A DNA stretch of 64,000 nt from Desulfurococcales archaeon (GCA_027022365.1 JALVYU010000026.1:352001-416000), one strand, 5' to 3'; numbered from the stretch's first letter, positions 33,360-59,527 are shown. Numbers and translations: made by a program. Notes: generated by a model not told the origin, from the letters alone.

Positions 33360-33373
33360 AACAAATAGTTTCG
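33360..33373 (+). promoter_or_regulatory. putative DNA-damage-responsive element AACAAATAGTTTCG
   Basis: Identical 14-mer upstream of the TFB3-like gene; contains ANTTTC; TATA-like TATTTAA about 23 nt downstream. Confidence 0.6.
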
Positions 33374-33456
33374 ATTGCCCCAGGCTCTTCCATCAGTATT
33401 TAACCATATAGCCCATTTTCTTACCATAAACACTTCTCTTCTATAACGGTGGGAAC

Positions 33457-33879
33457 ATGAAGGCTATATCCCCGCTCGTCGCAACAGCCATACTTCTCAT
33501 AATAACGATAGCCGGCGGGGTACTCCTATACAACTACATGATGAACACCCTATCAGCACCCCAAGAGTACGCCAATATCGCTGTAACCTCGGCCAAGATA
33601 TACCAAGTCAACACCACGACCGCGGTGCTAAACATACAAGTAGTCAACATGGGGACACGCACGGCAACAATAAATAGTATAACAATAATCCCGGGGAACT
33701 ACACATTCAGCCTCAGCAATACATTAGTAAAACCCGGTACATCGAAGAACATAAACATAGTCATCGATAACGCAACGGTTGTATCATCGCTTCTTACAGG
33801 CAACCACCTCGTCATAGTGAATTATAATAATGGAGTACAGACTAAGCCGGTCCAGATCGAAGAGGCGAGTACAACTTAA
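33457..33879 (+). CDS. archaeal type IV pilin (class III signal peptide)
   Basis: MKA|ISPLVATAILLIITIAGG, then Asn/Thr-rich beta domain with NxT/S sequons. Confidence 0.9.
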   Translation: MKAISPLVATAILLIITIAGGVLLYNYMMNTLSAPQEYANIAVTSAKIYQVNTTTAVLNIQVVNMGTRTATINSITIIPGNYTFSLSNTLVKPGTSKNINIVIDNATVVSSLLTGNHLVIVNYNNGVQTKPVQIEEASTT

Positions 33880-33911
33880 TAAGCAAGATTAATACGGGGT
33901 GTCTTAATCCA

Positions 33912-35447
33912 GTGAGATTTTTTAAATCAATAAACTCAATAAGACTCAATAGGATCTTTAAATCCTCGTTCTCCTCATTCGACATAGACAACGCTGTAGA
34001 GCTTATCAAACTAGTAGTGGAAGACACTAGACTAGCAGAAAAACACAGCCTTAACACAATAGAAGAATACACAATTGACGATATAATTACAGTTCGCATA
34101 ATAAAGAATAGGAACAAACTGGAATACGTGATAACCGAGCCCGCCCTAGAAGAAGATGTTATAGAAGCTATAGCTAGACTCTACTTAGAAAACCCACGTT
34201 GTAAAGATATAGCTTGTATTGAAGACACTATAAGAAGTCTTTCGGATCAATACATCGAGCGGATCTATACGGAAAAACCCCTCGAAGTTATCTATAATTA
34301 TTTCAAACTATCAAGCGGTTATGGCCCGCTATACCCGCTAACCCGTGACCCCCACATAGAGGAGATAGCGGCGAGTAGCGAAGACAGATACGTAAGCATA
34401 ATTCATAGGAAGTACAGCTGGTACGGCTGGATGTCCACAAACATAACAATAACGCAAAAACTCATGGATAGACTCGTTCTAAGCCTAGCAAGGATCATCG
34501 GACGTCACCTAAGCATAGCACAACCAATAGCCGAGGGATTAACGCCCGAAGGCCTTAGACTAGCACTCACATTTGGCCACGAAGTCTCACGTAAAGGCAG
34601 TAGCTTCGTCATTAGGAAAAAACCATCACAACCAATAACTATAACCAAGCTAATCGATCAAGAAGTCATATTAGCTGAGCTAGCAGCATATGCTTGGCTT
34701 GTACTGGAGCTCAAGGGTTCAATACTAATAGTAGGCGGTATGAGCACTGGTAAAACCACGTTACTCCAAGCATTACTAACACTCATTCCACCAACAAGGA
34801 GAGTTGTGACAATAGAGGATACTCCAGAAATAACCGGGACAACGGGTCTATGGGATCCACTCGTTGAAAGAGTAAGCACCATCGGAGACAAACTCAGTAT
34901 CAACATGTATGATCTACTAAAATTCAGCCTTAGACGGAGGGCAGACTACATAGTTGTAGGAGAAGTACGAGGGAGAGAGGCAAGACTCTTAGTGCAGGCA
35001 TCACGTTTAGGGCACGGCGTTCTCGCGACAATGCACGCAGACACGGCACAGTCAGTTATAGAAAGACTGACCGCACCACCCATATCTATACCAAAGAATC
35101 TACTGAGAAGTATTTGGTCCATATTCGTTATGGATGCAACCAACGGCCGTAGACATGTTAGAGAGATCTTTGAAATAGATCATAGGACCAGAGCACATAG
35201 AATCGCGGGGTTAAATGAAGATATCGAGCCATGTGTGAAGACAATAGCGGAAAACACTATACGGTTAAAAGAAATTCTGGATGAAGATACTATAATATCA
35301 GAGCTCGCGTCGAGGACAGCTTTCCTACAAATGCTTGTTAACAAAGGGGTTTTCGACATCTATTCCTTAGGCGAAAAACTCATTGAATACTATAGCTTGG
35401 AGGAGGAAGAATATGAAGGCCCGGGCATTTTTGAGGAAAATAATTAA
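33912..35447 (+). CDS. type IV pilus assembly ATPase (VirB11/TadA family)
   Basis: DPHIEEI, GGMSTGKT, TIEDTPE, LRRRADYIVVGEVRG, GHGVLATMHA. Confidence 0.92.
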   Translation: MRFFKSINSIRLNRIFKSSFSSFDIDNAVELIKLVVEDTRLAEKHSLNTIEEYTIDDIITVRIIKNRNKLEYVITEPALEEDVIEAIARLYLENPRCKDIACIEDTIRSLSDQYIERIYTEKPLEVIYNYFKLSSGYGPLYPLTRDPHIEEIAASSEDRYVSIIHRKYSWYGWMSTNITITQKLMDRLVLSLARIIGRHLSIAQPIAEGLTPEGLRLALTFGHEVSRKGSSFVIRKKPSQPITITKLIDQEVILAELAAYAWLVLELKGSILIVGGMSTGKTTLLQALLTLIPPTRRVVTIEDTPEITGTTGLWDPLVERVSTIGDKLSINMYDLLKFSLRRRADYIVVGEVRGREARLLVQASRLGHGVLATMHADTAQSVIERLTAPPISIPKNLLRSIWSIFVMDATNGRRHVREIFEIDHRTRAHRIAGLNEDIEPCVKTIAENTIRLKEILDEDTIISELASRTAFLQMLVNKGVFDIYSLGEKLIEYYSLEEEEYEGPGIFEENN

Positions 35448-36927
35448 TCCAAAAGTACTCGTATCGATTATCATATTTTCACTTTTATTAGATATCCTAG
35501 CACTTACAACCCACTGCTACTACTTATTGCTCAGCGTATCAATACCTATAACTCCGCCTCTCATTATTATAGCCAAAAGACTATCATTCAAGAAAAAGCT
35601 TGAAGAAGAATTCCCCGATTTCCTTGCCCTAAACCTTACGATGGAAGCAAACGGGTTAAGACTAGATAATGTATTCGATGAAGCTCTGAAGCATAAATTG
35701 AAATTACCACCCGCTTACGAGATCATAGCAAGAATATACAGTCTTATCAAGACGTTAAATCCAGACCCATATACAGGGCTTAGATATCTAGCCAAACTAG
35801 TGCCTAGTGAGAGAATATCTAGGTTCTTCAGAGGCTACACAGAGATACTCGTGACTACGAATGATACTCTAACATATGTTGAATCGAAACTTGATGAAGA
35901 ACTGGCTAGTCTGGAGCAACGAATAAGCCATAGTCTATCAGGCCTCGACACGCTCTATGAGGGATTATTAATTATCTTAATGTCGATAATAACGTTCATG
36001 CTTATACCCGTAGCTTATGTCCCAAAAGAACTTATAGCATTCATTGTTTCAATTACAGGTATCTCGGCATATATGCTCTCTTCTTCACTTACATCTCGGA
36101 CTTACAGATACGAGACTCAAGTGTCCCAATTAATCTCACTAATACTATTAACAATAACACCATTCATAATGCTCAATATAGGGCTTAGGGGGATGATCAT
36201 ATATACGTTCCTTATAATTTTCTTAACACTTATATTCAGGAAGATCGAAAAATCATCGGAAGATATAGAGAACAATGTTATTAGTCTCCTTGACGACCTT
36301 TACAGCGAGGCTAAACAAGGCATACCCATTGACCACGCCTTAATGAAGAAAGAGAACCTGATACATCCACTCAAGAAAATTCGGGATCTCCTAAGACTGG
36401 GCATCCCTATACCATCTATACTTGAGAAGCTAAGAATGCCGCCTTTCTCAAAGAAATTATTGGGTCTAGCTTTTTCCCCTCTAGAGTATAGTAGGTATCA
36501 TGAAAAACATTTAGGATATACTTTAAAGATCATGGATTATATTGTGAGGCTCCGACGCATACTTTCTGAAAGGGGAAAGATGTATTTCTTCTATGCATTA
36601 ACGCTACCCATCATAACTATTGTGATGATCAAAGGTATGACCACTATACAATCTAGTCTAAACAGTATGTTTGATCCCGAGCTAGCAGTGGGGCTTACAT
36701 ACTCGATATCATTAATAGCAGGGATAATCGCTTCAAAAATATCTAGTGGTAAGAGCCTGTATAGCGTTCTAACCCCTTTATTATTAGTAGTAACACTAGC
36801 CTCATTTTATCTAGCAAACATGATCATCCCTAACAACAGCGCTATAACGCCACATCCTTTACATCAGCCTTTGACAACACCTATAGGCCTCATCTTCACT
36901 ACCAGCCTAGCAATACCAACACGATGA
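35413..36927 (+). CDS. TadC/FlaJ-like pilus membrane platform protein
   Basis: Two cytoplasmic repeats separated by TM clusters, directly after the ATPase; SD AGGAGG before 35413. Confidence 0.75.
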   Translation: MKARAFLRKIINPKVLVSIIIFSLLLDILALTTHCYYLLLSVSIPITPPLIIIAKRLSFKKKLEEEFPDFLALNLTMEANGLRLDNVFDEALKHKLKLPPAYEIIARIYSLIKTLNPDPYTGLRYLAKLVPSERISRFFRGYTEILVTTNDTLTYVESKLDEELASLEQRISHSLSGLDTLYEGLLIILMSIITFMLIPVAYVPKELIAFIVSITGISAYMLSSSLTSRTYRYETQVSQLISLILLTITPFIMLNIGLRGMIIYTFLIIFLTLIFRKIEKSSEDIENNVISLLDDLYSEAKQGIPIDHALMKKENLIHPLKKIRDLLRLGIPIPSILEKLRMPPFSKKLLGLAFSPLEYSRYHEKHLGYTLKIMDYIVRLRRILSERGKMYFFYALTLPIITIVMIKGMTTIQSSLNSMFDPELAVGLTYSISLIAGIIASKISSGKSLYSVLTPLLLVVTLASFYLANMIIPNNSAITPHPLHQPLTTPIGLIFTTSLAIPTR

Positions 36928-38315
36928 GCAACCATGGCTACCCGGTCAACATCCTTATAGGCCCCAGGAGCTTCCTCGCTTATAACTCTCCTAGTAGCAG
37001 CTCTCAGTATTACACCCTTCCTAGCGAGCTCATCCACTACTCTTTCCGGCCTGTATGTTCTTATGGCTGCACCTCTGCTCATCCACCTGCCAGCACCATG
37101 TGGCGCGCTATGCCATGTCCTGGCACCCTTTGCTGTGCCGACGAGAATATAGCTAGCGGTACCCATTGAACCAGGTATTAGAACTGGTTGTCCAATACTC
37201 CTATATTTATCAGGTATTTCTGGGTGTCCCGGCGGGAATGCTCTTGTAGCGCCCTTCCTATGGACTACGACGTGGTATTCTTTACCTTCCACAACGTGTT
37301 TCTCGATCTTAGCGATGTTGTGAGCTACATCATAAATTAGCTTTAGACCAAGATCCTCGGGATCCTTATGGAATACTGCCTTGAAGCTCTCGCGAACCCA
37401 GTGCATGATCAGCTGCCGGTTGGTCCAAGCAAAGTTCGCTGCCGCTGCCATGGCTTTGAAGTAGTCCTGCGCCTCTGGGGACTTGAACGGTAGACTTGCA
37501 AGCTCCCTATCGGGGGGCCTGATACCGTATTTCCGCATAGCACGCTCCATTATGAGTAGATAATCGCTCGCAACCTGATGGCCTAGGCCACGGCTACCAG
37601 TATGTATCATTACTGTTACTTGTCCTTCATGCGTGATCCCCATGACCTTCGCCGTCTCCGGATCATATATTTTGTCTACAACCTGTACCTCGAGGAAATG
37701 ATTACCTGCACCAAGCGTTCCGAGCTGGTTGTGCCCCCTCTGTTTAGCCCTACGGCTAACCTTTGATGCATCCGCAGCTCTCCATGAACCGTGTTCCTCT
37801 ATGAATTCCATGTCTTCCTCCCATCCAAAGCCGTGCTCCACAGCCCATTCGACACCCCGGTTAAGCACTTCATCCAGCTCGGAGAAGCTCAGCCTTATCT
37901 TACCAGTGCTACCGACACCGCTTGGCACGTTTCGGAACAGTGTGTCAACCAGCTCCTTCAATCTCGGCCTTACATCTTTTTCATCAAGATCTGTCTTGAG
38001 AACCCTTACGCCACAGTTTATGTCGTAACCTACACCTCCAGGGCTGATAACACCCGTGTCTACGTCGAAGCCTGCAACCCCACCTATCGGGAACCCATAG
38101 CCCTGGTGGCCGTCCGGCATTACGTACATGGATATTTGTATCCCTGGCAGACACGCCACGTTCGCAGCCTGTACAAGCGTTAGATCACTACGCATTTTCT
38201 CAAGGAGATACTCATCCGCAAATATGATGGCTGGAACCCTCATACAGTGCTTAGTACCCTTCGGTATCATGTACTCATATTCGCCAATCTTTTCTAACCT
38301 CATATGATGACTCAT
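36864..38315 (-). CDS. rtcB: tRNA-splicing ligase RtcB
   Basis: MPDGHQGYGFPIG, GYDINCG, GNHFLE, HTGSRG, HRKGAT, HGAGR; no intein. Confidence 0.97.
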   Translation of the reverse strand: MSHHMRLEKIGEYEYMIPKGTKHCMRVPAIIFADEYLLEKMRSDLTLVQAANVACLPGIQISMYVMPDGHQGYGFPIGGVAGFDVDTGVISPGGVGYDINCGVRVLKTDLDEKDVRPRLKELVDTLFRNVPSGVGSTGKIRLSFSELDEVLNRGVEWAVEHGFGWEEDMEFIEEHGSWRAADASKVSRRAKQRGHNQLGTLGAGNHFLEVQVVDKIYDPETAKVMGITHEGQVTVMIHTGSRGLGHQVASDYLLIMERAMRKYGIRPPDRELASLPFKSPEAQDYFKAMAAAANFAWTNRQLIMHWVRESFKAVFHKDPEDLGLKLIYDVAHNIAKIEKHVVEGKEYHVVVHRKGATRAFPPGHPEIPDKYRSIGQPVLIPGSMGTASYILVGTAKGARTWHSAPHGAGRWMSRGAAIRTYRPERVVDELARKGVILRAATRRVISEEAPGAYKDVDRVAMVAHRVGIARLVVKMRPIGVVKG

Positions 38316-38432
38316 CAGATCTCACCCGACCATTTATTAATTATCTATTGATCCAAAACAGCCAATAATTGTCCTAGAATATCTATTAGTGGACAGGCTA
38401 ATATAGGTATAAAGTACTCTGTTAATATTTGA

Positions 38433-39749
38433 TTATATCCTTGCTAGTTTCTCCACGATCTCCCTGACTACTTCATCACTAGCTACACGTGTCTGATGCC
38501 CGGTTCTAAGATCCTTTACTGTTACTACTTTTTCCTCAAACTCTTTCTTACCGATGATCAATGCTAGATCATAGCCGGCTTTAGACGCTGTGCTCAATGC
38601 TTTCTTGATCTTGCTATGATGGTATAATGTTGATTCAGCCCCTATGTCTTCAACGATCCTCTTAATCTTGAACGCATAGCCTACTAGATTGTGATCCAAG
38701 ACTATTATCAACACTCTAGGACGATATGGTGGTTTAACTCCTTTAATCGACAATGCTATCCTGTCAAGACCCAGTGCCAGGCCCGTAGAATATTCAAATG
38801 GCCCGCCGTACACAGTTGTTAATCCATCATATCTTCCACCGCCGCCTATACTGAGCTCTAAACCTCCTATAGCCTTGTACTCGAATATGAGGCCAGAATA
38901 ATATGCGAGGCCCCTGACGAGGTTGGGATTATATACTGCCTTGTATCCCATATCGCCGAGTATTTCGATGAACCTGGTTGTTCTATCCAGTTCTTCTTCT
39001 AGTTTTTCAAGATAATTACTCAGTACATCATTGTACTCATCAATATACTGCCTTACATCATCGAGGCTAAGCTCTATCAGTTTCTTCATGGCATCCGCTG
39101 CGTCGCTATTAACGTTTCTTAGCTCCTCTATGGCCTTGTCATTCATTCTTTTATCGATTAGATGGAGCACGTGGTCCTGTGTCTCCACAGGGATCCCGAA
39201 TCCTGACATGATGGATCTGTGTAACGATACGTTGCTTACCTCGTAGAAGTGCTCGAGCCCAATCTTGTCTAGAAACGATGAAGCCGTTAGCGCTGCCTCT
39301 AGATCACCCTCAACACCCCTAACACCTATAACTTCGAGGCCTGCCTGCCAGAACTCCCTGTATCGGCCATGCTGTGGTTCCTCATACCTGAAGCACTGGG
39401 CGACATAGTATAGCTTTACGGGTTTGGGAAGGCCTCTAAGGAGGCGAAGATATATCCGTACAATACTTGCTGTTATCTCCGGCCTCAGTGATAATAACCT
39501 GCCGGCCTTGTCTTCGAAGACGTACATAGAACGCTTTATTTCTTCACCGCTCTTCTTTTCAAACAATTTGAAATACTCGAGCGTAGGCGGTATAACTGGT
39601 TTGAACCCGTTTATCCTAGCATAGTTTTTGAACTCGTTGAAAAGATATTCTAGGATCTCGGCGTCCTCGCCAACTAGGTCCCGCATGCCACGAGGCGGTA
39701 GGAGAGAGAAATCCCCCACCATAATAGTCACCATTCCCGCCGGTCTCAA
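38433..39749 (-). CDS. hisS: histidine--tRNA ligase
   Basis: PRGMRD, LRPEIT, FRYEEPQ.GRYREFWQ, RGLAYY, GGGRYD. Confidence 0.96.
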   Translation of the reverse strand: MRPAGMVTIMVGDFSLLPPRGMRDLVGEDAEILEYLFNEFKNYARINGFKPVIPPTLEYFKLFEKKSGEEIKRSMYVFEDKAGRLLSLRPEITASIVRIYLRLLRGLPKPVKLYYVAQCFRYEEPQHGRYREFWQAGLEVIGVRGVEGDLEAALTASSFLDKIGLEHFYEVSNVSLHRSIMSGFGIPVETQDHVLHLIDKRMNDKAIEELRNVNSDAADAMKKLIELSLDDVRQYIDEYNDVLSNYLEKLEEELDRTTRFIEILGDMGYKAVYNPNLVRGLAYYSGLIFEYKAIGGLELSIGGGGRYDGLTTVYGGPFEYSTGLALGLDRIALSIKGVKPPYRPRVLIIVLDHNLVGYAFKIKRIVEDIGAESTLYHHSKIKKALSTASKAGYDLALIIGKKEFEEKVVTVKDLRTGHQTRVASDEVVREIVEKLARI

Positions 39750-39811
39750 CGCTATAGGGTATGTATTTAGACAATGTCTTATCAGCCAGCCATATAACTG
39801 TTATCTTAACA

Positions 39812-40321
39812 TTATTTCTTGGGATCCATGCGTCCGACCTCATAGTATGTTATATCGCCCTGTAGGCTAACTACCGCTATGACGAGAGACAACGCGTTAT
39901 CCACCGCCTTCTCGATACTGGAAACTATTCCGTCAAGCGTGATCCTATGTCCTTCCTCAAGCACCTTGATCATCCTGAGCGCACCATGCTTATCCTTGAT
40001 CACAAACTCACCATCCTGTATGACCCTTATTCTCCGCCCCCGATCCCTTAGATCCTTGTAGACAAGGAGGCTTGGCCAAAAGAATTCTCGCAGACAATTA
40101 TAGGCTTTCTCCATGAATTCCTCGAGACCCGATATCTCTTCATCACATATGACTATTTTTGCGCGCTCACTGATCAGTAGGTATGCCGTCTCGATTATAC
40201 TCAGCTCTAAACCCTCCTTGGTTTCCCTGCCGAACCACTTATTGGATAGATCATAGTAGTTGTCCTTGATAAGCCCCTTGCAGGTATCTGTATCAAAGAT
40301 TATCCTATGTATTTTCGGCAT
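39812..40321 (-). CDS. tRNA-splicing endonuclease, structural (beta) subunit
   Basis: LELSIIETAYL, VYKDLRDRG, GDITYY; lacks the catalytic GxDFxxY..H segment. Confidence 0.78.
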   Translation of the reverse strand: MPKIHRIIFDTDTCKGLIKDNYYDLSNKWFGRETKEGLELSIIETAYLLISERAKIVICDEEISGLEEFMEKAYNCLREFFWPSLLVYKDLRDRGRRIRVIQDGEFVIKDKHGALRMIKVLEEGHRITLDGIVSSIEKAVDNALSLVIAVVSLQGDITYYEVGRMDPKK

Positions 40322-40415
40322 ATACTGCACCACGCAAGCACTGATCAACGTTACATCTTTTTCCCTAGAGTACCAGATATTACAACAATAATATATTATT
40401 GCAGGTGTACCGTCT

Positions 40416-41489
40416 ATGGATTACCCATATCCAATCAAGATCAGGGCCGTATGGTGGGAGGACAACCAGGTCTGCTGGATAGACACATCTAAACTACCAT
40501 TCGAGGAGAAAACCTACTGTACAGATGAGCCTAAGAGACTGGCCAGAGCCATTATCGCCATGGAGATAAGGGGTGCGCCAGCCATAGGTGTTGCTGCCGC
40601 TCTCGGCATAGCCGCCTACGCCATAAAAATAGCGTCTAGCAGTAGAGAGGAGTTCATCGATAGGATAGAGGATGCTATTAAAACACTGTGGAATACCAGG
40701 CCTACAGCTCATAATCTGTTCTGGGCGCTAACACGTATGCGCAACACACTGAGATCAGCAGCGGAGGAGGGACTGAACACCGGCGAGATAGCCGATAGGC
40801 TCCGCGAGGAAGCAATAAGAATAATGGACGAAGACATACGCGCCAATATACGTATGGGTGAATACGGGGCCGAGCTGGTCCCTGACAATGCAACAATCCT
40901 AACACACTGTAATGCTGGTGCATTAGCAACAGCTGCCTTCGGCACTGCCGAAGGAATAATGCGTGTCGCCTGGTACAAGGGCAAGAAGATTAAGGTAATA
41001 GCAACCGAGACCAGGCCCGTTCTCCAGGGCGCGAGGCTGACTGTATGGGAATTGATGAGGGAAGGAATACCCGTGACTCTCATAACCGATAACATGGCCG
41101 GGTACGTTATACGTAAGGGGCTCGTCGATCTAGTGATCGTTGGAGCGGATCGTATAACGAGGGAAGGCTATGTCATAAACAAGATAGGTACATACATGAT
41201 AGCGCTCGCCGCCAAGAGGAATAATGTGCCTTTCTACGTCGCGGCTCCAACGAGCACGATAGACTTGAACTCTTCAATCGACGATGTCGTAATAGAGGAA
41301 CGCGACCCTAATGAAGTCAAGAAGGTCCTAGGAAAGCCAATTACGTTAGAGGAGGCAAAAGCACTGAACTACGCCTTCGACATAACAGATCCTGATCTAG
41401 TAACAGCTATAATAACTGAGAGAGGAATAGTAAAACCGCCCTTCCCCGAGAACCTTAAACACGTTGTTGAGAGAAGGTTAAATATATAA
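40416..41489 (+). CDS. mtnA: methylthioribose-1-phosphate isomerase (eIF2B-like family)
   Basis: RGAPAIG, RPTA.NL, LTHCNAGALAT, ETRP.LQGARL, GADRI, NKIGTY. Confidence 0.9.
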   Translation: MDYPYPIKIRAVWWEDNQVCWIDTSKLPFEEKTYCTDEPKRLARAIIAMEIRGAPAIGVAAALGIAAYAIKIASSSREEFIDRIEDAIKTLWNTRPTAHNLFWALTRMRNTLRSAAEEGLNTGEIADRLREEAIRIMDEDIRANIRMGEYGAELVPDNATILTHCNAGALATAAFGTAEGIMRVAWYKGKKIKVIATETRPVLQGARLTVWELMREGIPVTLITDNMAGYVIRKGLVDLVIVGADRITREGYVINKIGTYMIALAAKRNNVPFYVAAPTSTIDLNSSIDDVVIEERDPNEVKKVLGKPITLEEAKALNYAFDITDPDLVTAIITERGIVKPPFPENLKHVVERRLNI

Positions 41490-41519
41490 TTTCTCTACCT
41501 CAACAATCTGAAATATGGT

Positions 41520-41629
41520 GGGCCCGTCGTCTAGCTTGGACTAGGATGCGGGGTTCGGGACCCGAGAGATCCCGCCGCTGGGACGGGCGAAACTCCCCGT
41601 GACCCGGGGTTCAAATCCCCGCGGGCCCA
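41520..41629 (+). tRNA. tRNA-Pro(CGG) with 34-nt intron at 37/38 (41560-41593)
   Basis: Cloverleaf; strict BHB with TTCG/CGAA central helix and GG|A, AC|T bulges. Confidence 0.93.
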
Positions 41630-41647
41630 CCTCTTATTCCTTTCTAG

Positions 41648-50596: not shown

Positions 50597-50743
50597 TCAT
50601 CTCCGTCTAGTGCTTGTTCCCTCCATTCAATCATAACGTCTATGCCTAGGAGTATTGGGTAATGTATCCAAGTATATAAGTACTATGGATCACATGTGTA
50701 TGTGACAAGTAATAAGTCTCCCTCCACAATATTATCTCGAAGG

Positions 50744-50798
50744 ATATGTGGAGGGGATCCCTGGCTGATCTTATGATGAGCTTTCGGTCGCCCCGAAG
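50744..50798 (+). ncRNA. box C/D sRNA
   Basis: ATGTGGA GGGGATCCCTGG CTGA TCTT ATGATGA GCTTTCGGTCGCC CCGA. Confidence 0.75.
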
Positions 50799-50808
50799 GT
50801 GATCCGTA

Positions 50809-51288
50809 TTGCCTAGGCGGTGGGTGTTATCCAAGAAGGAGAGGAAACAGCTCGTCAAGGAATTGTCCAGTCTTTATCCGGGCCTGGAGCTCGACCCGTC
50901 CTCGAAGATCGAGTACTACCAGTCCAGAGAACTACCCCTAATCATAATAGTTGATGATGTCCCAGCATTCTTCAAGTACGAGGATAAATGGGTACCACAT
51001 CTGAAATACCTGCTCAGTAAAGGATACGAGTGGATCCCACGGATCGTTGTGGATATGGGGGCCGTCAAGCCCCTGGGCCGAGGAGCAGACGTTATGGCCC
51101 CAGGCATAAGGAGAGTTGTCGGGGAGTTCCGGGCAGGCGATCCCGTAGCGGTCGTGGATGAAAAGTATGGAAAACCATTCGTTGTAGGAATAGCTCTTGT
51201 AGACTCAGTCAGAATCCCCGGTATGAAGAGGGGGAGGGTTGTTAGGAATATCCATCGTGTCGGTGATAGGATTTGGCGTTTACTCTAG
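50809..51288 (+). CDS. PUA-domain RNA-binding protein (DUF1947/MCTS1-like)
   Basis: LSKKE, VDMGAV...GADVMAPGI, HRVGD. Confidence 0.9.
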   Translation: MPRRWVLSKKERKQLVKELSSLYPGLELDPSSKIEYYQSRELPLIIIVDDVPAFFKYEDKWVPHLKYLLSKGYEWIPRIVVDMGAVKPLGRGADVMAPGIRRVVGEFRAGDPVAVVDEKYGKPFVVGIALVDSVRIPGMKRGRVVRNIHRVGDRIWRLL

Positions 51289-51417
51289 CTCTGTGTTAAC
51301 CGGGGGGTTACACGGGATCGCATCCTCTGGAACAGACATGATATTTTTATAAAGACTACAACACCGTAGATATGCCTAGCATAGACAAAACAAGATAAGC
51401 AGAGGTGAACGCCTAGA

Positions 51418-52212
51418 ATGCCTTTCAATGAGGGCGACTTCATAGTACTCGAGTACACGATCAGGGTAAAGGAGACGGGCAACATAGTTGATACAACGAA
51501 TGAGGAGCTCGCTAAGAAAGAAGGTGTTTACGAGTCGGGCAGGCTGTACGGGCCGACCCTAATAGTTCTCGGTAAGGGCTGGCTCAACAAGTATGTTGAG
51601 GAGAAGATCAAGGAGCTCGACGTGGGTGGAGAGGCCGAGATAGAGGTTCCACCCGAAAAAGCGTTTGGTGAAAGGGATCCCGGCAAAGTAAGGGTGTTTA
51701 GTATAAGAGAGTTTAGGAAGCGGGGATACAGGGTCCGGGTTGGAGACGTTGTAGAGGTTGGCGGCGAGAAAGGCATTGTAAAAAGCATAACTGGCGGCAG
51801 AGTGATCATTGACTTCAACCACCCACTAGCGGGTAAGACCCTCATCTACAAGGTCAAGATAGTTAGGAAGCTTGAGGGAACAGAGGAGAAGATCAAGGGC
51901 CTTGCGAGGAGGTATCTGCAGATACCGGAGGAAGAGCTCAAGATAGAGTATGATCCTGAGGAGAAGAAGGTCGTCATAGAGATCCCGACGAAATACATGG
52001 CTAGAAGAGATATACAGTACGCCAAGATACTCCTGGTCACAGACATTTACGATATGCTGAAAGACGAGGTAGATAAGGTAGTGTTCCAGGAAGTATTCAC
52101 GAGGCGGAAGGAAGAGAAGGTGGGGAAACAAGAAGAAGCCGAGAAGAGGGAAGCCGAGGAGAAGACGGGAGAAGCACCTAAGGAAGAAGAAGCTGCAGAG
52201 GAGAAGGCTTAG
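51418..52212 (+). CDS. long-type FKBP peptidyl-prolyl isomerase (SlyD-like)
   Basis: DTT, PEKAFGERD, DFNHPLAGK, acidic tail. Confidence 0.92.
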   Translation: MPFNEGDFIVLEYTIRVKETGNIVDTTNEELAKKEGVYESGRLYGPTLIVLGKGWLNKYVEEKIKELDVGGEAEIEVPPEKAFGERDPGKVRVFSIREFRKRGYRVRVGDVVEVGGEKGIVKSITGGRVIIDFNHPLAGKTLIYKVKIVRKLEGTEEKIKGLARRYLQIPEEELKIEYDPEEKKVVIEIPTKYMARRDIQYAKILLVTDIYDMLKDEVDKVVFQEVFTRRKEEKVGKQEEAEKREAEEKTGEAPKEEEAAEEKA

Positions 52213-52238
52213 CCCGAGCTGTAACAGCTCAACTTATG

Positions 52239-53333
52239 TTACTCTATAACACCTGTTTCTTTAGCAAGTCTCCAGGCCGCTTCCGGGGTAAGGCCGTTCT
52301 CGCCCAGTATCGTGTATCTCTCCGGCCTAATACGGTGCGCTATGGTTAGAGCCTTAACAATGATCTCAGCCGGTATACCCAGTTCTCTCGCAGTTACGGG
52401 TAATCCGATCCTTTTCATTACGGATCTGACCTTCTTCCACCGCTTATCGCCGTAGAGGTATAGCATCATAATCGTCCCAACTCCTACCTGTTCTCCATGT
52501 AGTGCCTTCCCTGGAGCAAGTATGTCCAGGGCGTGGCTAAACAAGTGCTCAGAACCGCTTGCAGGCCTGCTTGAACCAGCTATGCACATCGCTACACCAC
52601 TGCTTATCAGTGCCTCGACAAGGATTCTGATACCGTCCGGGTTACCGCTCCCGATGAGCTCGTGGTATCTCAGCACATGTTTCGCCGATAGGAGTGCTAG
52701 CTGCGCGGCGTACTCGCCATAGTATTCTCCTTTAAGCCTATGCGCTAACTGCCAGTCCTTAACAGCTGTGAGTTTCCCTATGAGGTCTCCTACACCGCTG
52801 AGATTTAGTCTTCTAGGAGCTCTTGATATGATCGATATGTCGGCGAGGATCAGTGTGGGTGTGACGGCCGGCATACTGGTCGGCTTATCCCTGCCCTTAA
52901 GACTTGCGAAAGGAGATGTTATCCCGTCGTGGCTGGCGGCCGTTGGAACACTTACCAGTAACCCGTTATTCCTGGATGCAGAATACTTGGCTATATCTAT
53001 GGATTTGCCTCCGCCGATACCTAGGTATATGGTTATACCTTGCTCCCTCGTCTCGGCAGCTACTTTCTCAGCGACGGATATATGGGGGGATTCAACAATC
53101 CATGTGCCCACCTTTAAGCCGGAAGCCTTAAGACGCTCCTCTATTTTACGGGATATTTTTTCATATACGTGGGGCCCTGTTATCAGGGCGATGCGGTCAT
53201 CTGTTGAAACATTTATTTCCTCGAGATAACGCGTTATGTTCGATGCAATATTGTTTCCCACAACAACGAGTTTCGGTAAGATGATCTTATGTTGTTTGGC
53301 GCTGTTCACTTCTAATACACCATTTACATACAA
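52239..53333 (-). CDS. egsA: sn-glycerol-1-phosphate dehydrogenase
   Basis: GGGKSID, PTAASHDG, SGSEHLFSH, HGEQVG. Confidence 0.95.
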   Translation of the reverse strand: MYVNGVLEVNSAKQHKIILPKLVVVGNNIASNITRYLEEINVSTDDRIALITGPHVYEKISRKIEERLKASGLKVGTWIVESPHISVAEKVAAETREQGITIYLGIGGGKSIDIAKYSASRNNGLLVSVPTAASHDGITSPFASLKGRDKPTSMPAVTPTLILADISIISRAPRRLNLSGVGDLIGKLTAVKDWQLAHRLKGEYYGEYAAQLALLSAKHVLRYHELIGSGNPDGIRILVEALISSGVAMCIAGSSRPASGSEHLFSHALDILAPGKALHGEQVGVGTIMMLYLYGDKRWKKVRSVMKRIGLPVTARELGIPAEIIVKALTIAHRIRPERYTILGENGLTPEAAWRLAKETGVIE

Positions 53334-53412
53334 TTTATCGGTGGCTACAAGTGTATTTATAAATAAGCATAATTAGATAGTTTGTGCATGGCATTATCTC
53401 TGGTAGCGGTGG

Positions 53413-54042
53413 GTGTTAATGACTAGTAAGACCGCGTCTAAGACGACGACCGTTGGGCTCGTGGTAAGAGATTATGTTGTCCTAGCAGCTGATAAGCGTG
53501 CCACAGCGGGCACTATGGTCGCACATAATAGGGTTATGAAGATACAAAAGATAGATGATCATGCAGCGATGACTATCTCAGGCCTAGTCGCTGATGCTCA
53601 GTACATTGTTGAGCAGGCCAGATATATATCGCGCAAATACAGCCTCGACATGGGGAAACCCATAAGTATTAGAGGGCTTGCCTCGCAGATCTCCATTATA
53701 TTACAGGCGTACCTTAGGATGAATCCGTTCATAGTCCAGCTTATCATAGGCGGATATGATGTGGCGCCTCACATATATTATGTAGACTTATTCGGTAGCC
53801 TTAGTGAAGAAAAATATATAGCTACGGGCTCGGGTTCGCCGGTTGCATATGGCGTTCTAGAGTCGGGCTATCGAGAAGATCTAAGTCTCGAGGAAGCGAA
53901 AGATCTGGCGTACAGAGCTGTCAGGGCTGCTACTGAGAGGGATAGCTATAGTGGTGAAGGCGTGGACATAGTTGTGATCGGTAAGGACTTGTATGAGGAG
54001 GAAACAAGGCTTTTCCGGAAAAAGGTAGTGAGTCTCTTATAG
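53413..54042 (+). CDS. psmB: proteasome beta subunit (catalytic type)
   Basis: K-TTTVGL, ADKR, GLVADAQ, TGSGS. Confidence 0.93.
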   Translation: MLMTSKTASKTTTVGLVVRDYVVLAADKRATAGTMVAHNRVMKIQKIDDHAAMTISGLVADAQYIVEQARYISRKYSLDMGKPISIRGLASQISIILQAYLRMNPFIVQLIIGGYDVAPHIYYVDLFGSLSEEKYIATGSGSPVAYGVLESGYREDLSLEEAKDLAYRAVRAATERDSYSGEGVDIVVIGKDLYEEETRLFRKKVVSLL

Positions 54043-54209
54043 GCTAATACGTTCTCCGAGGCCTAGAATATAATAAGGTATATTAAGTAAACAATCATAA
54101 CTCACATATTGATAATAATCGGGCACACTATGTGCTCGTGTTTCTAGTTAGTTAAACATACTGATGTTCTAGCTAATCAACTCGATCAACGATATAATGG
54201 TGTTGGAGT

Positions 54210-56165
54210 GTGAAAAGACTGATAATAGATCGAGGGAGAACAACACTACTCCGCCAGATCCTCGCGGAATTACCGCCCGATATAGGGCTGACAAACATCG
54301 AGTTCGAGGGACCGGAGATAGTCCTTTATGTTAAGAATAGGAAGGCTATTGCCAACAAACTAGATCTGGTCAAGAACATCGCTAAGAAGGTCAGGAAGAG
54401 GGTAGTGATACGAGTACACCCAGACGCCAGGCTTCCACCGCAAGAGGCTAAGGAGAAAATACTAGAGCTTGTTCCTAAGGATGCCGGAATCGATCCTAAC
54501 AGTATAGTGTTTGATAAAACCCTGGGGGAGGTATGGATCAAGGCCGAGAAGCCCGGAATGGTTATAGGTAAGGGGGCGGTGCTCCATCATCTAATTCTAG
54601 CGGAGACGGGTTGGCGCCCCGAAGTATTCAGAGCGTCACCGCTGGAGTCGAAAACACTTAACGTCATCATGACGAACCTGTTAAAGCAGAGTGATTATAG
54701 GCTGAGGTTCCTCAGGTACATAGGCGAGAGAATACATCGAGACGTGATCTTTAAGAACAATTATGTCAGGATAACAGCGCTAGGAGGGTTCATGGAGGTC
54801 GGGAGATCAGCCATCCTCGTCGAGACTAGGGAGAGCAGAGTCCTCCTAGATCTTGGCGTAAATGTCGGCGCAGGATCAGATCCTAACAGGGCTTATCCAT
54901 ACATAGACATAAGCCAGATAAGAATATCGGAGCTCGACGCCGTAGTAGTTACTCATGCTCATCTAGACCACTGCGGCTTGGCACCGCTCCTATTCAAATA
55001 CGGCTATCGAGGCCCCGTATATGTTACTAAGCCCACGAGAGAGCTCATGGCAATCATGATCAAGGATTATATAGAGGTAACGCAGCGCGAGGGAAAATAC
55101 CTGCCCTACGGCGAGAAAGAGCTCATGACGATGATACTTCACACGATACCGCTGGGATATAATGAAGTGACTGATGTAGCTCCCGATATAAAGGTTACAA
55201 TGTATAATGCCGGCCATATCCTCGGATCAGCCATTGTCCACCTACACATAGGGAGCGGGCTCCACAACATAGTCTACACAGGCGACTTCAAGTACGCTAA
55301 CACCAGGCTCCTCGAGAGAGCCAACGACAAGTTCCCCCGTGTGGAGACCCTAATAATGGAGTCAACATACGGTGCTACAAGGCAACAGAATAGGCGTGAG
55401 GCGGAACAAGAACTAATCAGTATTATCAAGAGAACTATCGAGAGGCAGGGCATAGTCCTTATACCTGTTTTCGCCGTTGGTAGGGGCCAGGAGATAATGC
55501 TTGTATTAAGCGACGCCATACAGCGCGGGCTACTGCCCAGAGTTGACGTGTTTATCGAGGGCCTAGTAAACGAGGTTACAGCGATACATACACAGTACCC
55601 CGAATACCTGAACCGCAATCTGAAAGACATGATATACCGTGGCGAGAACCCCTTTGTGGCTGATTACTTCCACATCATAGAGGGGCATAAGGCTAGGCCT
55701 GATATCGTGGAGACAAGGCCATCCATAATAATTGCTACCAGTGGTATGCTGACCGGCGGGCCAGCAGTGGAGTACCTAAGACTAATAGCAAGCGATCCAA
55801 GGAACTCCCTCGTCTTCGTTGGCTACCAGGCGGAGGGAACATTGGGGAGGAGGATCAAGGATGGTCTCCGGGAGCTCCAAATGGTGATTGATAACAAGGT
55901 AGAGATCGTTAGGATAAACCTCGAAGTATACAGTGTCGAGGGCTTCTCAGGGCATAGCGACCAGAGCGAACTACTGAGGTATGTCCGCAACATCGCGCCG
56001 AGACCCCGCAACATCGTGCTAAATCACGGCGAGCCCACAGCCATTATGACGCTTGCAAGGCTTGTGTCACGCCTCGTATCTAATCCTAGAAGTGGCTATG
56101 TTGGTTCGACACAAGTGTTCACACCGAATATTCTCGACTCTATACACTTGACTGCGCGGAGGTGA
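54210..56165 (+). CDS. beta-CASP ribonuclease aCPSF1/FttA
   Basis: KH domains, HAHLDH, GHILGS, GFSGHSD. Confidence 0.95.
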   Translation: MKRLIIDRGRTTLLRQILAELPPDIGLTNIEFEGPEIVLYVKNRKAIANKLDLVKNIAKKVRKRVVIRVHPDARLPPQEAKEKILELVPKDAGIDPNSIVFDKTLGEVWIKAEKPGMVIGKGAVLHHLILAETGWRPEVFRASPLESKTLNVIMTNLLKQSDYRLRFLRYIGERIHRDVIFKNNYVRITALGGFMEVGRSAILVETRESRVLLDLGVNVGAGSDPNRAYPYIDISQIRISELDAVVVTHAHLDHCGLAPLLFKYGYRGPVYVTKPTRELMAIMIKDYIEVTQREGKYLPYGEKELMTMILHTIPLGYNEVTDVAPDIKVTMYNAGHILGSAIVHLHIGSGLHNIVYTGDFKYANTRLLERANDKFPRVETLIMESTYGATRQQNRREAEQELISIIKRTIERQGIVLIPVFAVGRGQEIMLVLSDAIQRGLLPRVDVFIEGLVNEVTAIHTQYPEYLNRNLKDMIYRGENPFVADYFHIIEGHKARPDIVETRPSIIIATSGMLTGGPAVEYLRLIASDPRNSLVFVGYQAEGTLGRRIKDGLRELQMVIDNKVEIVRINLEVYSVEGFSGHSDQSELLRYVRNIAPRPRNIVLNHGEPTAIMTLARLVSRLVSNPRSGYVGSTQVFTPNILDSIHLTARR

Positions 56166-56174
56166 AGATACACG

Positions 56175-56696
56175 ATGGTAAGAAGAGTGTTATTTCCCGG
56201 GAGATTCCAGCCGTTCCATAACGGGCATTTAAAGATCGTTAAATATCTCGCCGATAAATTTGATGAAGTCGTCATAGCTATCGGGAGCGCGCAGGAGGGA
56301 TTTACTTGTAGGAATCCGTTTACGGCTAGTGAGAGAATAGAGATGATCGATGAAACGTTAAGGGCCTCCGGTATGTCTAGAGACGAGTATCTCTTGATCC
56401 CGGTACCTGATATACATAAACCCATGGCATGGACTACATATGTACTAGGTATGATTCCGAGAGTAGAAGCTGTAGCAACTGGGAACCCTCATGTAGAGTT
56501 TCTTTATAGATGGCTCGGCATCGATGTCGTAAAGATCGAGCTATACAATCCACATCTCTACAGCGGCACTGTTATACGTAGGCTCATGATGGTTAGTGAT
56601 ACGTGGCGTGAAAGAGTACCCAAACCTGTTGCGAGATATATTGATAACATAGATGGCGTAGAGCGTGTTAAGAGGGTGTGCAGAAATACTTGTTGA
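56175..56696 (+). CDS. nadM: nicotinamide-nucleotide adenylyltransferase
   Basis: GRFQPFHNGH, GSAQ, NPFT, SGTVIR. Confidence 0.92.
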   Translation: MVRRVLFPGRFQPFHNGHLKIVKYLADKFDEVVIAIGSAQEGFTCRNPFTASERIEMIDETLRASGMSRDEYLLIPVPDIHKPMAWTTYVLGMIPRVEAVATGNPHVEFLYRWLGIDVVKIELYNPHLYSGTVIRRLMMVSDTWRERVPKPVARYIDNIDGVERVKRVCRNTC

Positions 56697-57756
56697 GATC
56701 GATGGGAGTATAGGCGAGGGCGGGGGGCAGATACTGAGGTACAGCATAGCTCTCTCAGCCGTTCTCCAGATCCCGGTGAGGATATACAATATAAGGGCCA
56801 AGAGGAGAAACCCTGGTTTAAGGCCCCAGCACTTAACAGCCGTTAGGGCTCTTGCAAAAATAACTGATGCTGTTGTACGTGGGGATAGAGTTGGTAGTAT
56901 GGAAATAGTCTTTGAGCCTAGGACGAGAAAATCAGGTATTTTCGAGTTTAATATAGGGACTGCTGGTAGCGTAACGCTGGTCCTTCAAGCACTTCTGCCA
57001 GTTCTTCTCTTCGTCGATCATACTTCGAGAGTAACTATAATTGGTGGCACAGATGTTCCTTGGAGCCCCCCGATAGACTATATGATCTTTGTCTTCAAGC
57101 ATAATCTGCAGTTATTTGGCGCAAAAATTGAGGTGAAGCTACTAAGGCGGGGCCATTACCCGAGGGGCGGTGGCAGAGTAGTTGTTGAAGTAGAGCCTGT
57201 GAAGGATTACTTGAAGCCGATCAATATTGTGAAGCATAACGGCATAGTAGCGATACGTGGCAGAAGCCACGCCGTGAGACTGCCTAAACATGTGGCTGAG
57301 AGGCAGGCACGTGCAGCCTCTGCTATTATAGCTGAAAAGCTCGGCCTAGAGCCGCTTATCGATATAGAGTACTATGAGAAGGGAAGGGATCCTCATCTAG
57401 GTCCTGGCAGTGGGATAGTGGTTTACGCCGAGACAAGAACGGGTACTAGGCTCGGAGCTGATAGTCTTGGAGAGAAAGGCAAGCCTGCCGAGAAGGTGGG
57501 CCGTGAGGCCGCGTTGAAGCTTGTAGAAGACATAGGTACAGGTATGGGTTTTGACAGGCATATGGCGGACATGCTCATTCCCTACATGTTTCTCGCAAGG
57601 GGATCCAGTGTTGCAGGTGTTGCTAGGCTCACTAGTCACGCACTGACAGCGATCAGGATCACGAAGATGTTTCTAAGGGATGCGGCTGTAGAGGTGGATG
57701 GCGAAGAGGGTGAGCCAGGCATTATCAGGATAGATGGGATCGGATTTTCTCGATAA
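56665..57756 (+). CDS. rtcA: RNA 3'-terminal phosphate cyclase
   Basis: GEGGGQILR, GLRPQH, YPRGGG, DRHMAD. Confidence 0.94.
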   Translation: MLRGCAEILVEIDGSIGEGGGQILRYSIALSAVLQIPVRIYNIRAKRRNPGLRPQHLTAVRALAKITDAVVRGDRVGSMEIVFEPRTRKSGIFEFNIGTAGSVTLVLQALLPVLLFVDHTSRVTIIGGTDVPWSPPIDYMIFVFKHNLQLFGAKIEVKLLRRGHYPRGGGRVVVEVEPVKDYLKPINIVKHNGIVAIRGRSHAVRLPKHVAERQARAASAIIAEKLGLEPLIDIEYYEKGRDPHLGPGSGIVVYAETRTGTRLGADSLGEKGKPAEKVGREAALKLVEDIGTGMGFDRHMADMLIPYMFLARGSSVAGVARLTSHALTAIRITKMFLRDAAVEVDGEEGEPGIIRIDGIGFSR

Positions 57757-58786
57757 GTTTATTCTCGAGTATCTCAAGCAGTTTGCCGAGACCATACCCC
57801 TTGTCAGCCGAGATAAGCAGTGGTTCACGCCCTGTTGTATCCGCTATTTTCTTCCTTGATTCCTCCAGGATATCCTCTGGCGTTATATCGATCTTGTTTA
57901 TTGCTACTATGATGTCGTCCGAACCGATAATGTTTATGACATCCCTGTACACGGCTAGTTGTTCATCGAGACTATAGTAGGTATTAGGATTCGTGTCGAA
58001 CAAGTAGAGTAGGATATCTGACAGGTGTTTGAGCGCTAGAACCGCTTTCATTTCTATCTCGTTTCTTTTGTCGAGGGGTCTATCGAGTAGGCCGGGCGTA
58101 TCTATGAGTGTTATTTTACCGTAAGGCTTCACCTCTATATGTCCTGCGATTATTGTCTTCGTCGTAAAGGGATAGGGGCTTATCTCGGGCTCAGCCCTCG
58201 TGAGCTTCTTGAGCAGTGTTGATTTTCCTACTTGGGGCATTCCAACAATTATAACTACTAGATCGCCCGTGACATCTGGCATCCCCGAGATCTCTTTTAT
58301 GGCTTCTTTGACGGCCTCTAGTAGTGCTCGGTCTCTCTTGAGCAGCGATAGCATTCTCCCTAATCCTCCTCTAAAGGCTCTCTTCGCCTCGCCTCCTGTT
58401 AGGCTGGATTTTATCCCTGTCCTTGTATCACGGTATATTCTGTTGAGGATCCTCCTCTTAGCCCTGTATCTGCCCAGCAGATCTGCTGGGCTTCTACCCG
58501 TTTTTATTATGAATAACTCTTTGTAGAAATCATGCATCTTATCTACGGCTTCGAGGGCCTTCACGATTTTCTCCATGTTTGAGTCTAGGACAGTATATGC
58601 TGTCCCTAGTTTTGCGAGTAGTGTGTTCTTGAATTGGAGCAACGTGTTCTTACCAGTACTTCGTGGGGGTGGCGGGATAGGCGTTGACCGCATACGGTTG
58701 TCTACGCGTCTGTATATGTCCTCATATAATGGTATCCAGTATTTCTTGAGCTTGTCGGGGGTTATTGTTTGTTCATTGTTTTTCAT
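57725..58786 (-). CDS. NOG1-family GTPase
   Basis: GMPQVGKS, YPFTT, DTPGLLDR, NKID. Confidence 0.9.
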   Translation of the reverse strand: MKNNEQTITPDKLKKYWIPLYEDIYRRVDNRMRSTPIPPPPRSTGKNTLLQFKNTLLAKLGTAYTVLDSNMEKIVKALEAVDKMHDFYKELFIIKTGRSPADLLGRYRAKRRILNRIYRDTRTGIKSSLTGGEAKRAFRGGLGRMLSLLKRDRALLEAVKEAIKEISGMPDVTGDLVVIIVGMPQVGKSTLLKKLTRAEPEISPYPFTTKTIIAGHIEVKPYGKITLIDTPGLLDRPLDKRNEIEMKAVLALKHLSDILLYLFDTNPNTYYSLDEQLAVYRDVINIIGSDDIIVAINKIDITPEDILEESRKKIADTTGREPLLISADKGYGLGKLLEILENKLIEKIRSHLS

Positions 58787-58825
58787 GGTTCATCTCTGTT
58801 TATGTTGTTTTCTCTAAACATGATG

Positions 58826-59434
58826 TTATGGCGGGTTAATATTTGCTGGTTTTATCCTCTCATGTATTTTCTTGGCGAGTCTTAGGAGGCGCTTATAGCT
58901 TGTGGGGCTTATATTGAATATCTCGGTAACTCTGTGCTCGAGGGGAGGTCTTCTCTTCTTATCTAGGAATGAGAGTATATATGCTAGTGCATACTTGCTT
59001 CTCTCGGTTCTAGCGAGGGCTGCAGGGTAGACTCTCTCTATTAGCTCTATATAGTGTTGTAGCTCACGGCGAATTCCTAGCTCCTCGATGTTTTTCTCGG
59101 CATTGATAGTAGCGTCCGACTTTATTGTTTTCACGAGCTTCCCGCTGTGGAGATATTTATCGTAGTCTATATGTAGCCATGGTCTGCCTGTGACGTATTT
59201 TTGCGCTGTATTATACCTCCTTATATGTATATAGTATTGCCTGTGTTGTCTCCTGTGTTTGGGATTTTCGAGCTTCTTTGCCTGGCATTGATATATGGTG
59301 TCCTCCCTCCTGTACGGCGGGCTATAATCATATATTGTATCAATAACTGTTCCGCAGGAACTACAGGTTATTTCTCCCTTCTCGTAGTCCCAGATCAGAA
59401 TGCCTCCGCATATGGGGCACGTGTTTTCTCTCAT
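58826..59434 (-). CDS. truncated TFIIB zinc-ribbon protein, TFB3-like
   Basis: CPICGG.LIWDYEKGEITCSSCGTVID.IYDY; only 202 aa, lacks two full cyclin repeats. Confidence 0.75.
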   Translation of the reverse strand: MRENTCPICGGILIWDYEKGEITCSSCGTVIDTIYDYSPPYRREDTIYQCQAKKLENPKHRRQHRQYYIHIRRYNTAQKYVTGRPWLHIDYDKYLHSGKLVKTIKSDATINAEKNIEELGIRRELQHYIELIERVYPAALARTERSKYALAYILSFLDKKRRPPLEHRVTEIFNISPTSYKRLLRLAKKIHERIKPANINPP

Positions 59435-59513
59435 CTACTGACACCGTTACATTGGTAGGGCTTCTCTGTTATTTCTCGAGAACAGTGTATGGTAGCGCGC
59501 TCTGAGGGTGTAA

Positions 59514-59527
59514 CGAAACTATTTGTT
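59514..59527 (-). promoter_or_regulatory. putative DNA-damage-responsive element AACAAATAGTTTCG
   Basis: Identical to 33360-33373, same orientation and similar distance to the downstream start. Confidence 0.6.

Follow-up and report, generated by a model that had tools for sequence, protein, structure and literature searches.

The 64,000-nt stretch of DNA analyzed here (the window; positions 352001-416000 of contig C26, JALVYU010000026.1) belongs to the metagenome-assembled genome (MAG) of a Desulfurococcales archaeon (GCA_027022365.1, designated G000; 1,742,253 bases in 44 contigs) and carries two copies of a 14-nt sequence, AACAAATAGTTTCG, one in front of a type IV pilus (T4P) operon and the other in front of a gene for a truncated transcription factor B (TFB) of the TFB3 type (Table 1). 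Both copies lie exactly where the initial annotation had placed them, between genes and in sense orientation, and the distances to the start codons of the pilin and TFB3-like genes, measured as 83 and 79 nt, reproduce the ~84 and ~80 nt given there. The pilus operon, with the topoisomerase VI B gene on its 5′ side and a convergent RtcB gene downstream, encodes a pilin, an assembly ATPase and a polytopic membrane protein. The pilin has a class III signal-peptide-like N-terminus (MKA/ISPLVATAILL), scored at 16.5 bits by the arch_flag_Nterm model TIGR02537, below its cut-off of 20; the ATPase likewise stayed below the cut-offs of the FlaI-type and BasE-type models. The membrane protein of 514 aa possesses eight hydrophobic segments and two soluble stretches, gave no match in Pfam or NCBIfam even to E = 5 and no tblastn match in Sulfolobaceae loci, and has orthologs following the ATPase in the loci of three relatives; from its position and topology it is presumed to be a platform protein of the TadC/FlaJ type.

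The N-terminus of the TFB3-like protein matches the Pfam family Zn_Ribbon_TF (PF08271) at 38 bits against a cut-off of 29, no cyclin/TFIIB core was matched in Pfam, and the NCBIfam TFIIB model covers residues 3-46 only. When a profile of the protein family was compared with five genomes of Sulfolobaceae (the name given here to family f13 of the GTDB grouping, because UpsA exceeded its cut-off in this family alone, in 13 of 151 genomes), it retrieved in all five of them open frames of 168-212 aa at 49-66 bits, the TFBs of ~300 aa scoring at most 39 bits. The C-terminal blocks K.ALA.Y and ISxxxx[KR][KR]hL align with these Sulfolobaceae TFB3 candidates, four of five of which have A.TTTC ~75 nt upstream. 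Judged by profile scores and the C-terminal motif, the 202-aa protein is nearer to the TFB3 of Sulfolobaceae than to their TFB1/2. Elsewhere in the genome (C26:93606-94172, -) there is another, more distant TFB3-like match (32% identity, E 6e-18), which contains one in-frame TAG in an open frame of 271 aa and is possibly a paralog or a pseudogene.

The recurrence of a 14-nt sequence is unremarkable by itself, because 86 distinct 14-mers are present at least twice in the window (25.1 ± 5.5 in 20 first-order Markov resamples). With up to two mismatches allowed, the 14-mer was matched three times in the window against 0.59 expected, three matches being reached in 2 of 100 shuffles; no third exact copy exists across the 1,742,253-base genome. 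The likeness of the two sites is confined to these 14 bases, their flanks not being alike, and the first four bases, AACA, are already lost in relatives of the same genus, which have ACGAATAGTTTCG before tfb3. The meaningful part of the 14-mer is the 10-base core at its 3′ end, AATAGTTTCG; of the 14-bp element proposed in the initial annotation this core stands, and the leading AACA does not.

The core occurs in eight copies genome-wide, a rough estimate from composition being ~5. As read from their contexts, five of the eight are promoter-proximal and in sense orientation, with a TATA-like box 8-23 nt downstream (8, 14, 16, 23 and 23 nt, read by eye), and three lie inside genes. The crude gene caller, under which ~11% of the genome is non-coding, left only four copies outside genes and put the cedA1 copy inside an over-long open reading frame (ORF). 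The shorter A.TTTC occurs 3484 times in the genome. A third copy of AATAGTTTCG in the window (32766-32775, -) falls within the topoisomerase VI B gene and reads along its coding strand; loci L036 and L037 of two relatives have it at the corresponding place, and it probably reflects coding constraint.

The core coincides with a published regulatory element. In Saccharolobus islandicus a 20-bp consensus of the DNA damage-responsive element (DDRE), AATAGTTTCRGWDTACTCWS, is reported to have been derived from 21 promoters induced by NQO (4-nitroquinoline 1-oxide), and its A(N)TTTC core to be the Orc1-2 footprint and to be needed for NQO induction of upsA, upsE, tfb3 and cedA1 (PMC6061795, PMC5817253). 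At both window sites AATAGTTTCG is identical to the first 10 bases of AATAGTTTCRGWDTACTCWS; over the 20 positions the two sites agree with the consensus at 16 and 17 (our own count), and the best site of the genome, on contig C3, at 19. The form of the box in this lineage can be written as AATA[G/C]TTTC[G/A] followed by a C/T-rich half, the A(N)TTTC hexanucleotide being present at both window sites.

Conservation of the box was assessed with position weight matrices (PWMs) for which only tfb3 sites were used. The 26-nt full PWM, promoter-specific in its second half, ranks the pilin site low (7.5), and therefore the 10-nt core PWM (maximum 17.4 bits; threshold 11 bits) was chosen for comparisons across promoters. 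Orthologs of the TFB3-like protein were found in G000 and in 22 of 24 genomes of its family, the misses being G017 (99% complete) and G013 (70% complete); by their NCBI names, the related loci come from Staphylothermus, Thermosphaera, Thermogladius and MAGs of Desulfurococcales and Desulfurococcaceae. Each of the 23 family loci has the box before the tfb3-like gene, between -74 and -135, the protein identity falling as low as 34%; among seven loci from other families only two have it. The tfb3 promoters share a C/T-rich half after the box (e.g., GCCCTACTCCC) and, ~23 nt on, a conserved CATACA block, which we read as a weak TATA. In loci L013, L014, L018, L021 and L022 the TFB3-like orthologs have lost the four Zn-ribbon cysteines in part or altogether, and the DDRE-type box still stands upstream; in S. 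islandicus TFB3 these cysteines are reported to be essential (PMC6101594).

The same box precedes the pilus operon. Its core at the pilin promoter of the window reaches 17.4 bits, i.e., the PWM maximum. Orthologs of the ATPase (E < 1e-110) were detected in 21 of 24 family genomes and are always preceded by the pilin gene; among 17 distinct pilin upstream regions of the family, 13 scored at least 11 bits and 15 at least 8 bits with the tfb3-only PWM, the best match falling at -90 to -104 in 16 of them. The weaker pilin boxes deviate by one base (AATAGTTAC, AATAGTATC), read ATTATTTTC or are represented by an offset TTTAGTTTCG. In a MAFFT alignment of 16 orthologous pilin upstream regions (G024 left out of the 17) the box and a TATA block with the consensus TATATAA form the conserved columns. 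No site of at least 11 bits was found in front of the two other T4P ATPase loci of the genome, and none of three pilin loci of other families scored with the core PWM.

The third transcription unit with the box is that of the DNA import system Ced, a cluster of which lies just outside the window (Table 1). CedA1 scored 120 bits, above the cut-off of 100; the matches to the CedA N-domain (128 bits), CedB (98 bits) and CedD (292 bits) are the best ones and lie below the equivalog cut-offs, the CedD-like ATPase being encoded 12 kb 3′ of the window. The box of cedA1 in G000, TAATAGTTTCGG, is followed after 16 nt by TATATTC and stands closely upstream of what is probably the GTG start. Among cedA1 promoters of the family 13 of 17 loci scored at least 11 bits, the best match lying at -45 to -60 in all 17, and the box occupies the same position in family f12 (11.9 bits) and in Sulfolobaceae (AATAGTTTTG, 11.2 bits), a variant of it being present in family f2. 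An apparent DDRE with a TATA box before the gene upstream of cedB was dropped, as it falls inside the 461-aa CedA-like ORF.

Thus, the element holds a fixed position and is conserved before three orthologous transcription units; it is also rare elsewhere. Of 1730 upstream windows of G000, 1.2% score at least 11 bits with the core PWM, and in 51 family loci the 32 of 129 ORFs that do so are 18 tfb3-like genes, 13 pilins and one other. The initial annotation had allowed for a motif that is frequent at random positions or not conserved upstream of orthologs; these figures, with a single non-target gene among 129 ORFs, speak for neither, the box being kept before the tfb3-like and pilin orthologs throughout the family. 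As a positive control, the tfb3-derived PWM recovered AATACTTTCG/A ~75 nt before upsA in Sulfolobaceae loci. The sole non-target match is a second perfect AATAGTTTCG in locus L010 (relative G020; 2144-3170, +), located 90 nt before the gene 3′ of tfb3 and within the 3′ end of tfb3.

Table 1. Features of the window and of the remaining genome that are discussed in the text (positions without a contig name are counted from the first nucleotide of the window)
Feature	Position	Strand	Remarks
Shared 14-mer AACAAATAGTTTCG, pilin side	33360-33373	+	Intergenic, sense; ends 83 nt before pilin ATG at 33457
Core AATAGTTTCG of pilin-side copy	33364-33373	+	C/T-rich half after it, to about 33392
Probable TATA box TATTTAA of pilin operon	33397-33403	+	23 nt 3′ of core
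Pilin, 140 aa	33457-33879	+	N-terminus MKAISPLVATAILL...; GGTG Shine-Dalgarno at 33448-33451; one N-terminal hydrophobic segment
Type IV pilus assembly ATPase, 511 aa	33912-35447	+	Pfam T2SSE PF00437, 96.8 bits
Polytopic membrane protein, 514 aa as called	35383-36927	+	Start more likely ATG at 35413
Shared 14-mer AACAAATAGTTTCG, tfb3 side	59514-59527	-	Intergenic, sense; ends 79 nt before start codon (ATG, 59434) of TFB3-like gene
Core AATAGTTTCG of tfb3-side copy	59523-59514	-	Weak TATA-like ATACAC at 59490-59485, 23 nt 3′ of core
TFB3-type truncated TFB, 202 aa	58826-59434	-	Zn ribbon and short conserved C-terminal domain
Ced-like cluster: cedA1, 461-aa CedA-like protein with long C-terminal extension, 52-aa ORF, CedB-like ATPase	C26:348048-351683 (L118 3048-6683)	-	Just 5′ of window
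RecA/KaiC-fold-like protein without P-loop, 216 aa	C3:24876-25526 (L061 1876-2526)	-	Site C3:25564-25589, best DDRE in genome
aCcr1-family ribbon-helix-helix regulator	C26:584389-584571 (L064 1389-1571)	+	61 bits, cut-off 60; DDRE-type box ~64 nt upstream
DDRE-like site CATAATACTTTCGCCCTACTATTTAC	25486-25511; core AATACTTTCG 25489-25498 (16.6 bits)	+	Between divergent radA (24482-25435, -) and 144-aa gene (25598-26032, +); sense for the latter

The genes for the trans-acting factors and for the effectors are both present in the genome. Two Orc1/Cdc6 genes were found. The product of one is Orc1-1-like, with 430 bits to Sso Cdc6-1; for that of the other, located on contig C7, the closest matches in the PDB are Pyrobaculum aerophilum Cdc6 and Aeropyrum pernix ORC2, and in five Sulfolobaceae genomes one paralog scored 340-378 bits against it, a second 133-161 bits and the third 54-64 bits. 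The top paralog is neither Cdc6-1 nor Cdc6-3, the second-best being Cdc6-1, and by this elimination the C7 protein is taken as the Orc1-2 ortholog. It keeps the segments PRRHTQ and RGRTTLIS, at both of which the Orc1-1 proteins differ, and in Orc1-2 an Arg pair and Thr of the helix together with an Arg pair of the wing are reported to be DNA-binding and regulatory residues (PMC12490963). By homology with Saccharolobus/Sulfolobus, the box would be bound by this protein.

The pilus itself is of another kind than the Ups pili of Sulfolobales, and its identification as Ups was rejected, the pilin score, the ATPase clade and the gene order all disagreeing with it. On the UpsA model the pilin of the window scored 37.1 bits against a cut-off of 130, and another pilin of the same genome scored higher (50 bits). 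In the ATPase tree (38 rows, quick IQ-TREE, midpoint root; UpsE rows identified by adjacency to UpsA) the window ATPase belongs to a clade of 15 family rows, two f2 rows and one f8 row (SH-aLRT 99) with zero Sulfolobaceae members, and the five UpsE rows with one paralog form a separate 100% clade outside it. The Ups operon has the order upsX-upsE-upsF-upsA-upsB and belongs to T4P subsystem 4I, whereas here the order is pilin-ATPase-platform, with one pilin and with no upsX in the operon (no upsX-directed search was made). Common to both is a T4P operon with a DDRE promoter, here the sole box-bearing T4P locus of several in the genome. In the literature Ups is described as exclusive to Sulfolobales (PMC13705601, PMC11823120, PMC6101594, PMC9905601), and Aeropyrum as being without Ups. 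The view of the initial annotation, that the lineage uses a pilus locus of its own, is borne out by the distribution of UpsA and by the ATPase tree, the pilus not being Ups. Its placing of the circuit outside Sulfolobales holds for the NCBI names, which are those of Desulfurococcales, but not for GTDB, in whose grouping this family (f1) and the UpsA-bearing f13 share one order.

Further candidate targets carry the box. The strongest site of the genome precedes the gene of the RecA/KaiC-fold-like protein, which has no match in Pfam or NCBIfam, its fold and the missing P-loop being a reading of the sequence; all 10 family loci and both f7 loci retain this box. Of 14 family loci, 10 have the box before the aCcr1-family gene and two more have the TTTAGTTTCG variant there; one Sulfolobaceae genome carries the box before another, second copy of an aCcr-family gene. 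These occurrences are a hint that damage and the control of cell division are linked. DDRE-like cores (AATATTTTCG, AATAGTTACG) were also seen upstream of two pilin-like genes, C26:317464-317817 (-) and C26:105995-106519 (-), with the N-termini MKGLSQ... and MKAISPVIAAVVL..., respectively; these are possible accessory pilins of the same response. A DDRE-like site at C26:77430-77455 (+; 19.3 bits with the full PWM) stands 19 nt before the gene of a XerA-like tyrosine recombinase with a C-terminal Zn ribbon (77475-78623), which may be part of an integrated element; another one lies upstream of a winged helix-turn-helix gene, and the 144-aa gene next to radA (Table 1) is a candidate target as well. 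No box was detected in the 220 nt before the orc1-1, radA (own strand), XPB, Lhr, VirB4/HerA-like, PibD-like and CedD-like genes.

Genes of DNA transactions are dense in the first half of the window (1665-31684): an Lhr-type helicase (1665-4667, -), a VirB4/HerA/CedD-like ATPase (4548-6323), XPB (10928-12601), reverse gyrase (14547-18269), a candidate prepilin peptidase of the FlaK/PibD-like kind (23632-24432; the FlaK match is weak, only 19.9 bits), RadA and topoisomerase VI A/B (30380-33302). The G+C content of the window is about 0.34-0.42 in the first 30 kb and 0.48-0.54 past 40 kb.

Considering these data, we regard it as rather probable that the 14-mer holds a functional upstream activating element of the Sulfolobales DDRE kind and that the lineage has an Orc1-2/TFB3-type regulon into which a different, non-Ups T4P was recruited. 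The initial annotation had proposed that the lineage wires its own pilus into the TFB3/DDRE-type circuit, and this proposal finds support in the box kept before both the tfb3-like and the pilin orthologs. The regulon would share with that of Sulfolobales the core AATAGTTTCR, which lies 5′ of the TATA box (read by eye) in sense orientation, the orthologous targets tfb3 and cedA1, an Orc1-2 ortholog with the same winged-helix residues, and a pilus operon among its targets. It differs in that the pilus target is another T4P system, in that the host is a neutrophile-type vent hyperthermophile without UV exposure, and in that the likeness is known here at the level of sequence. By homology with Saccharolobus/Sulfolobus, DNA damage would be the trigger and aggregation the function of the pili: upon damage the Orc1-2 ortholog would bind the element and, jointly with the TFB3-type factor once induced, would recruit the basal machinery to these weak promoters; the pili then made would bring the cells together, and the Ced apparatus would import DNA for RadA-dependent repair. 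This suggests that the lineage, too, may clump and swap DNA upon damage to its genome.

Several points weigh against this interpretation. The relatives compared are kin, so that the promoter counts are non-independent events; in 4 of 17 pilin promoters the box is degenerate, reading TTAC, TATC or ATTATTTTC or being present as an offset copy; the window pilin site fits the consensus poorly in its second half, as its full-PWM score shows, and the tfb3 "TATA" ATACAC is weak. No DDRE-like site was seen in the 220 nt before the Orc1-2 ortholog, and orc1-2 itself is strongly induced in Sulfolobales. A look-up of RNA sequencing runs for 33200-37000 returned none. The spacing also departs from the model: in Sulfolobus acidocaldarius the box is reported at -44 to -39 from the transcription start site (PMC5817253), whereas here the distance between box and TATA is variable (8-23 nt), the box being farther away (14-23 nt) at four promoters of the five that were read, and 8 nt from the TATA at the fifth. 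Finally, the habitat is a hydrothermal vent, and for this reason UV is excluded as the natural trigger.

The absence of UV at vents is also among the grounds for another explanation, according to which the element is real and conserved but serves a non-damage programme, such as cell-cycle-, growth-phase- or contact-dependent DNA exchange, being bound by Orc1-2 or another factor and co-regulating the pilus and Ced. Conservation shows that the box has a function, but not which signal it answers; the box also stands before the aCcr1-family cell-cycle regulator in most family loci, and for the cultures that yielded Ced pili of A. pernix the available text of PMC9905601 mentions no UV step. Nevertheless, the same box precedes orthologs of tfb3 and cedA1, reported to be damage-responsive and Orc1-2-dependent in Saccharolobus (PMC6061795), the strongest site of the genome precedes a RecA-fold-like protein, and the DNA-contact residues of Orc1-2 are kept, so we consider a non-damage programme unlikely.

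It is still more doubtful that the operon encodes an ordinary adhesion or surface pilus whose expression the box modulates, its tie to Ced-mediated DNA exchange being coincidental. The minimal three-gene T4P type is catalogued as common in Sulfolobales and Desulfurococcales and as having unknown function (PMC4858521), the synteny with topoisomerase VI reaches families without the box (L053-L055), and two relatives (G006, G021) retain only part of the set. Against a coincidental tie, the box stands at only one of three T4P ATPase loci, as at Ups only in Saccharolobus (PMC11868833), and G017, nearly complete as it is, gave with these queries none of the TFB3-like ortholog, the orthologous ATPase and CedA1. 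As for mere chance, i.e., a random repeat of 14-mers whose likeness to the DDRE is an A/T-rich short-motif coincidence, the numerous repeated 14-mers of the window, the abundance of A.TTTC and the number of AATAGTTTCG copies, near its estimate, are all in its favor; it is contradicted by the position of the box, kept across orthologous promoters at protein identity down to 34-40%, and by the low background with one match only among non-target ORFs, which makes it hardly credible.

That a damage response with TFB3 and Ced extends beyond Sulfolobales was already proposed by Feng et al. (2018; PMC6101594), who put forward a co-evolution of TFB3 and Ced from gene co-occurrence in 13 crenarchaeal genera. 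Their proposal predicts a conserved circuit of TFB3 and Ced outside Sulfolobales, and G000 has both; it differs from ours in its basis, which in the available text is gene presence, without cis-element analysis or a pilus partner outside Sulfolobales. Literature searches returned no promoter-element analysis in Desulfurococcales and no damage-linked pilus outside Sulfolobales, although the supplementary promoter tables of PMC6061795, PMC6101594 and PMC5817253 may contain relevant data; the cis-element evidence and the pilus link thus appear to be new. On a wider scale, it is conceivable, if somewhat less than probable, that an Orc1-2/TFB3 damage regulon with Ced, an aggregation pilus and a cell-cycle arm goes back to an ancestor common to Sulfolobaceae and Desulfurococcaceae, that the two lineages plugged different paralogous T4P into it, and that in Desulfurococcaceae it also takes in the P-loop-less RecA-like protein and an aCcr1-family repressor as a checkpoint-like link between damage and division.

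Ced import is known beyond Sulfolobales and Ups is not, and the question addressed here is by what means Ced-bearing relatives achieve cell contact and whether their system responds to DNA damage at all. The candidate regulon of Desulfurococcaceae comprises tfb3, cedA1AB, one pilus operon, the RecA-like protein and the aCcr-family regulator, and several members of the family are in culture. The finding is also a case of regulatory rewiring, in which the same cis-element and, presumably, the same factors serve paralogous pilus hardware. If the wider, ancestral scenario is true, the "missing Ups" of Ced-bearing archaea outside Sulfolobales would be identified, and community DNA repair through pilus-mediated aggregation would operate in deep-sea vent hyperthermophiles that are never exposed to UV.

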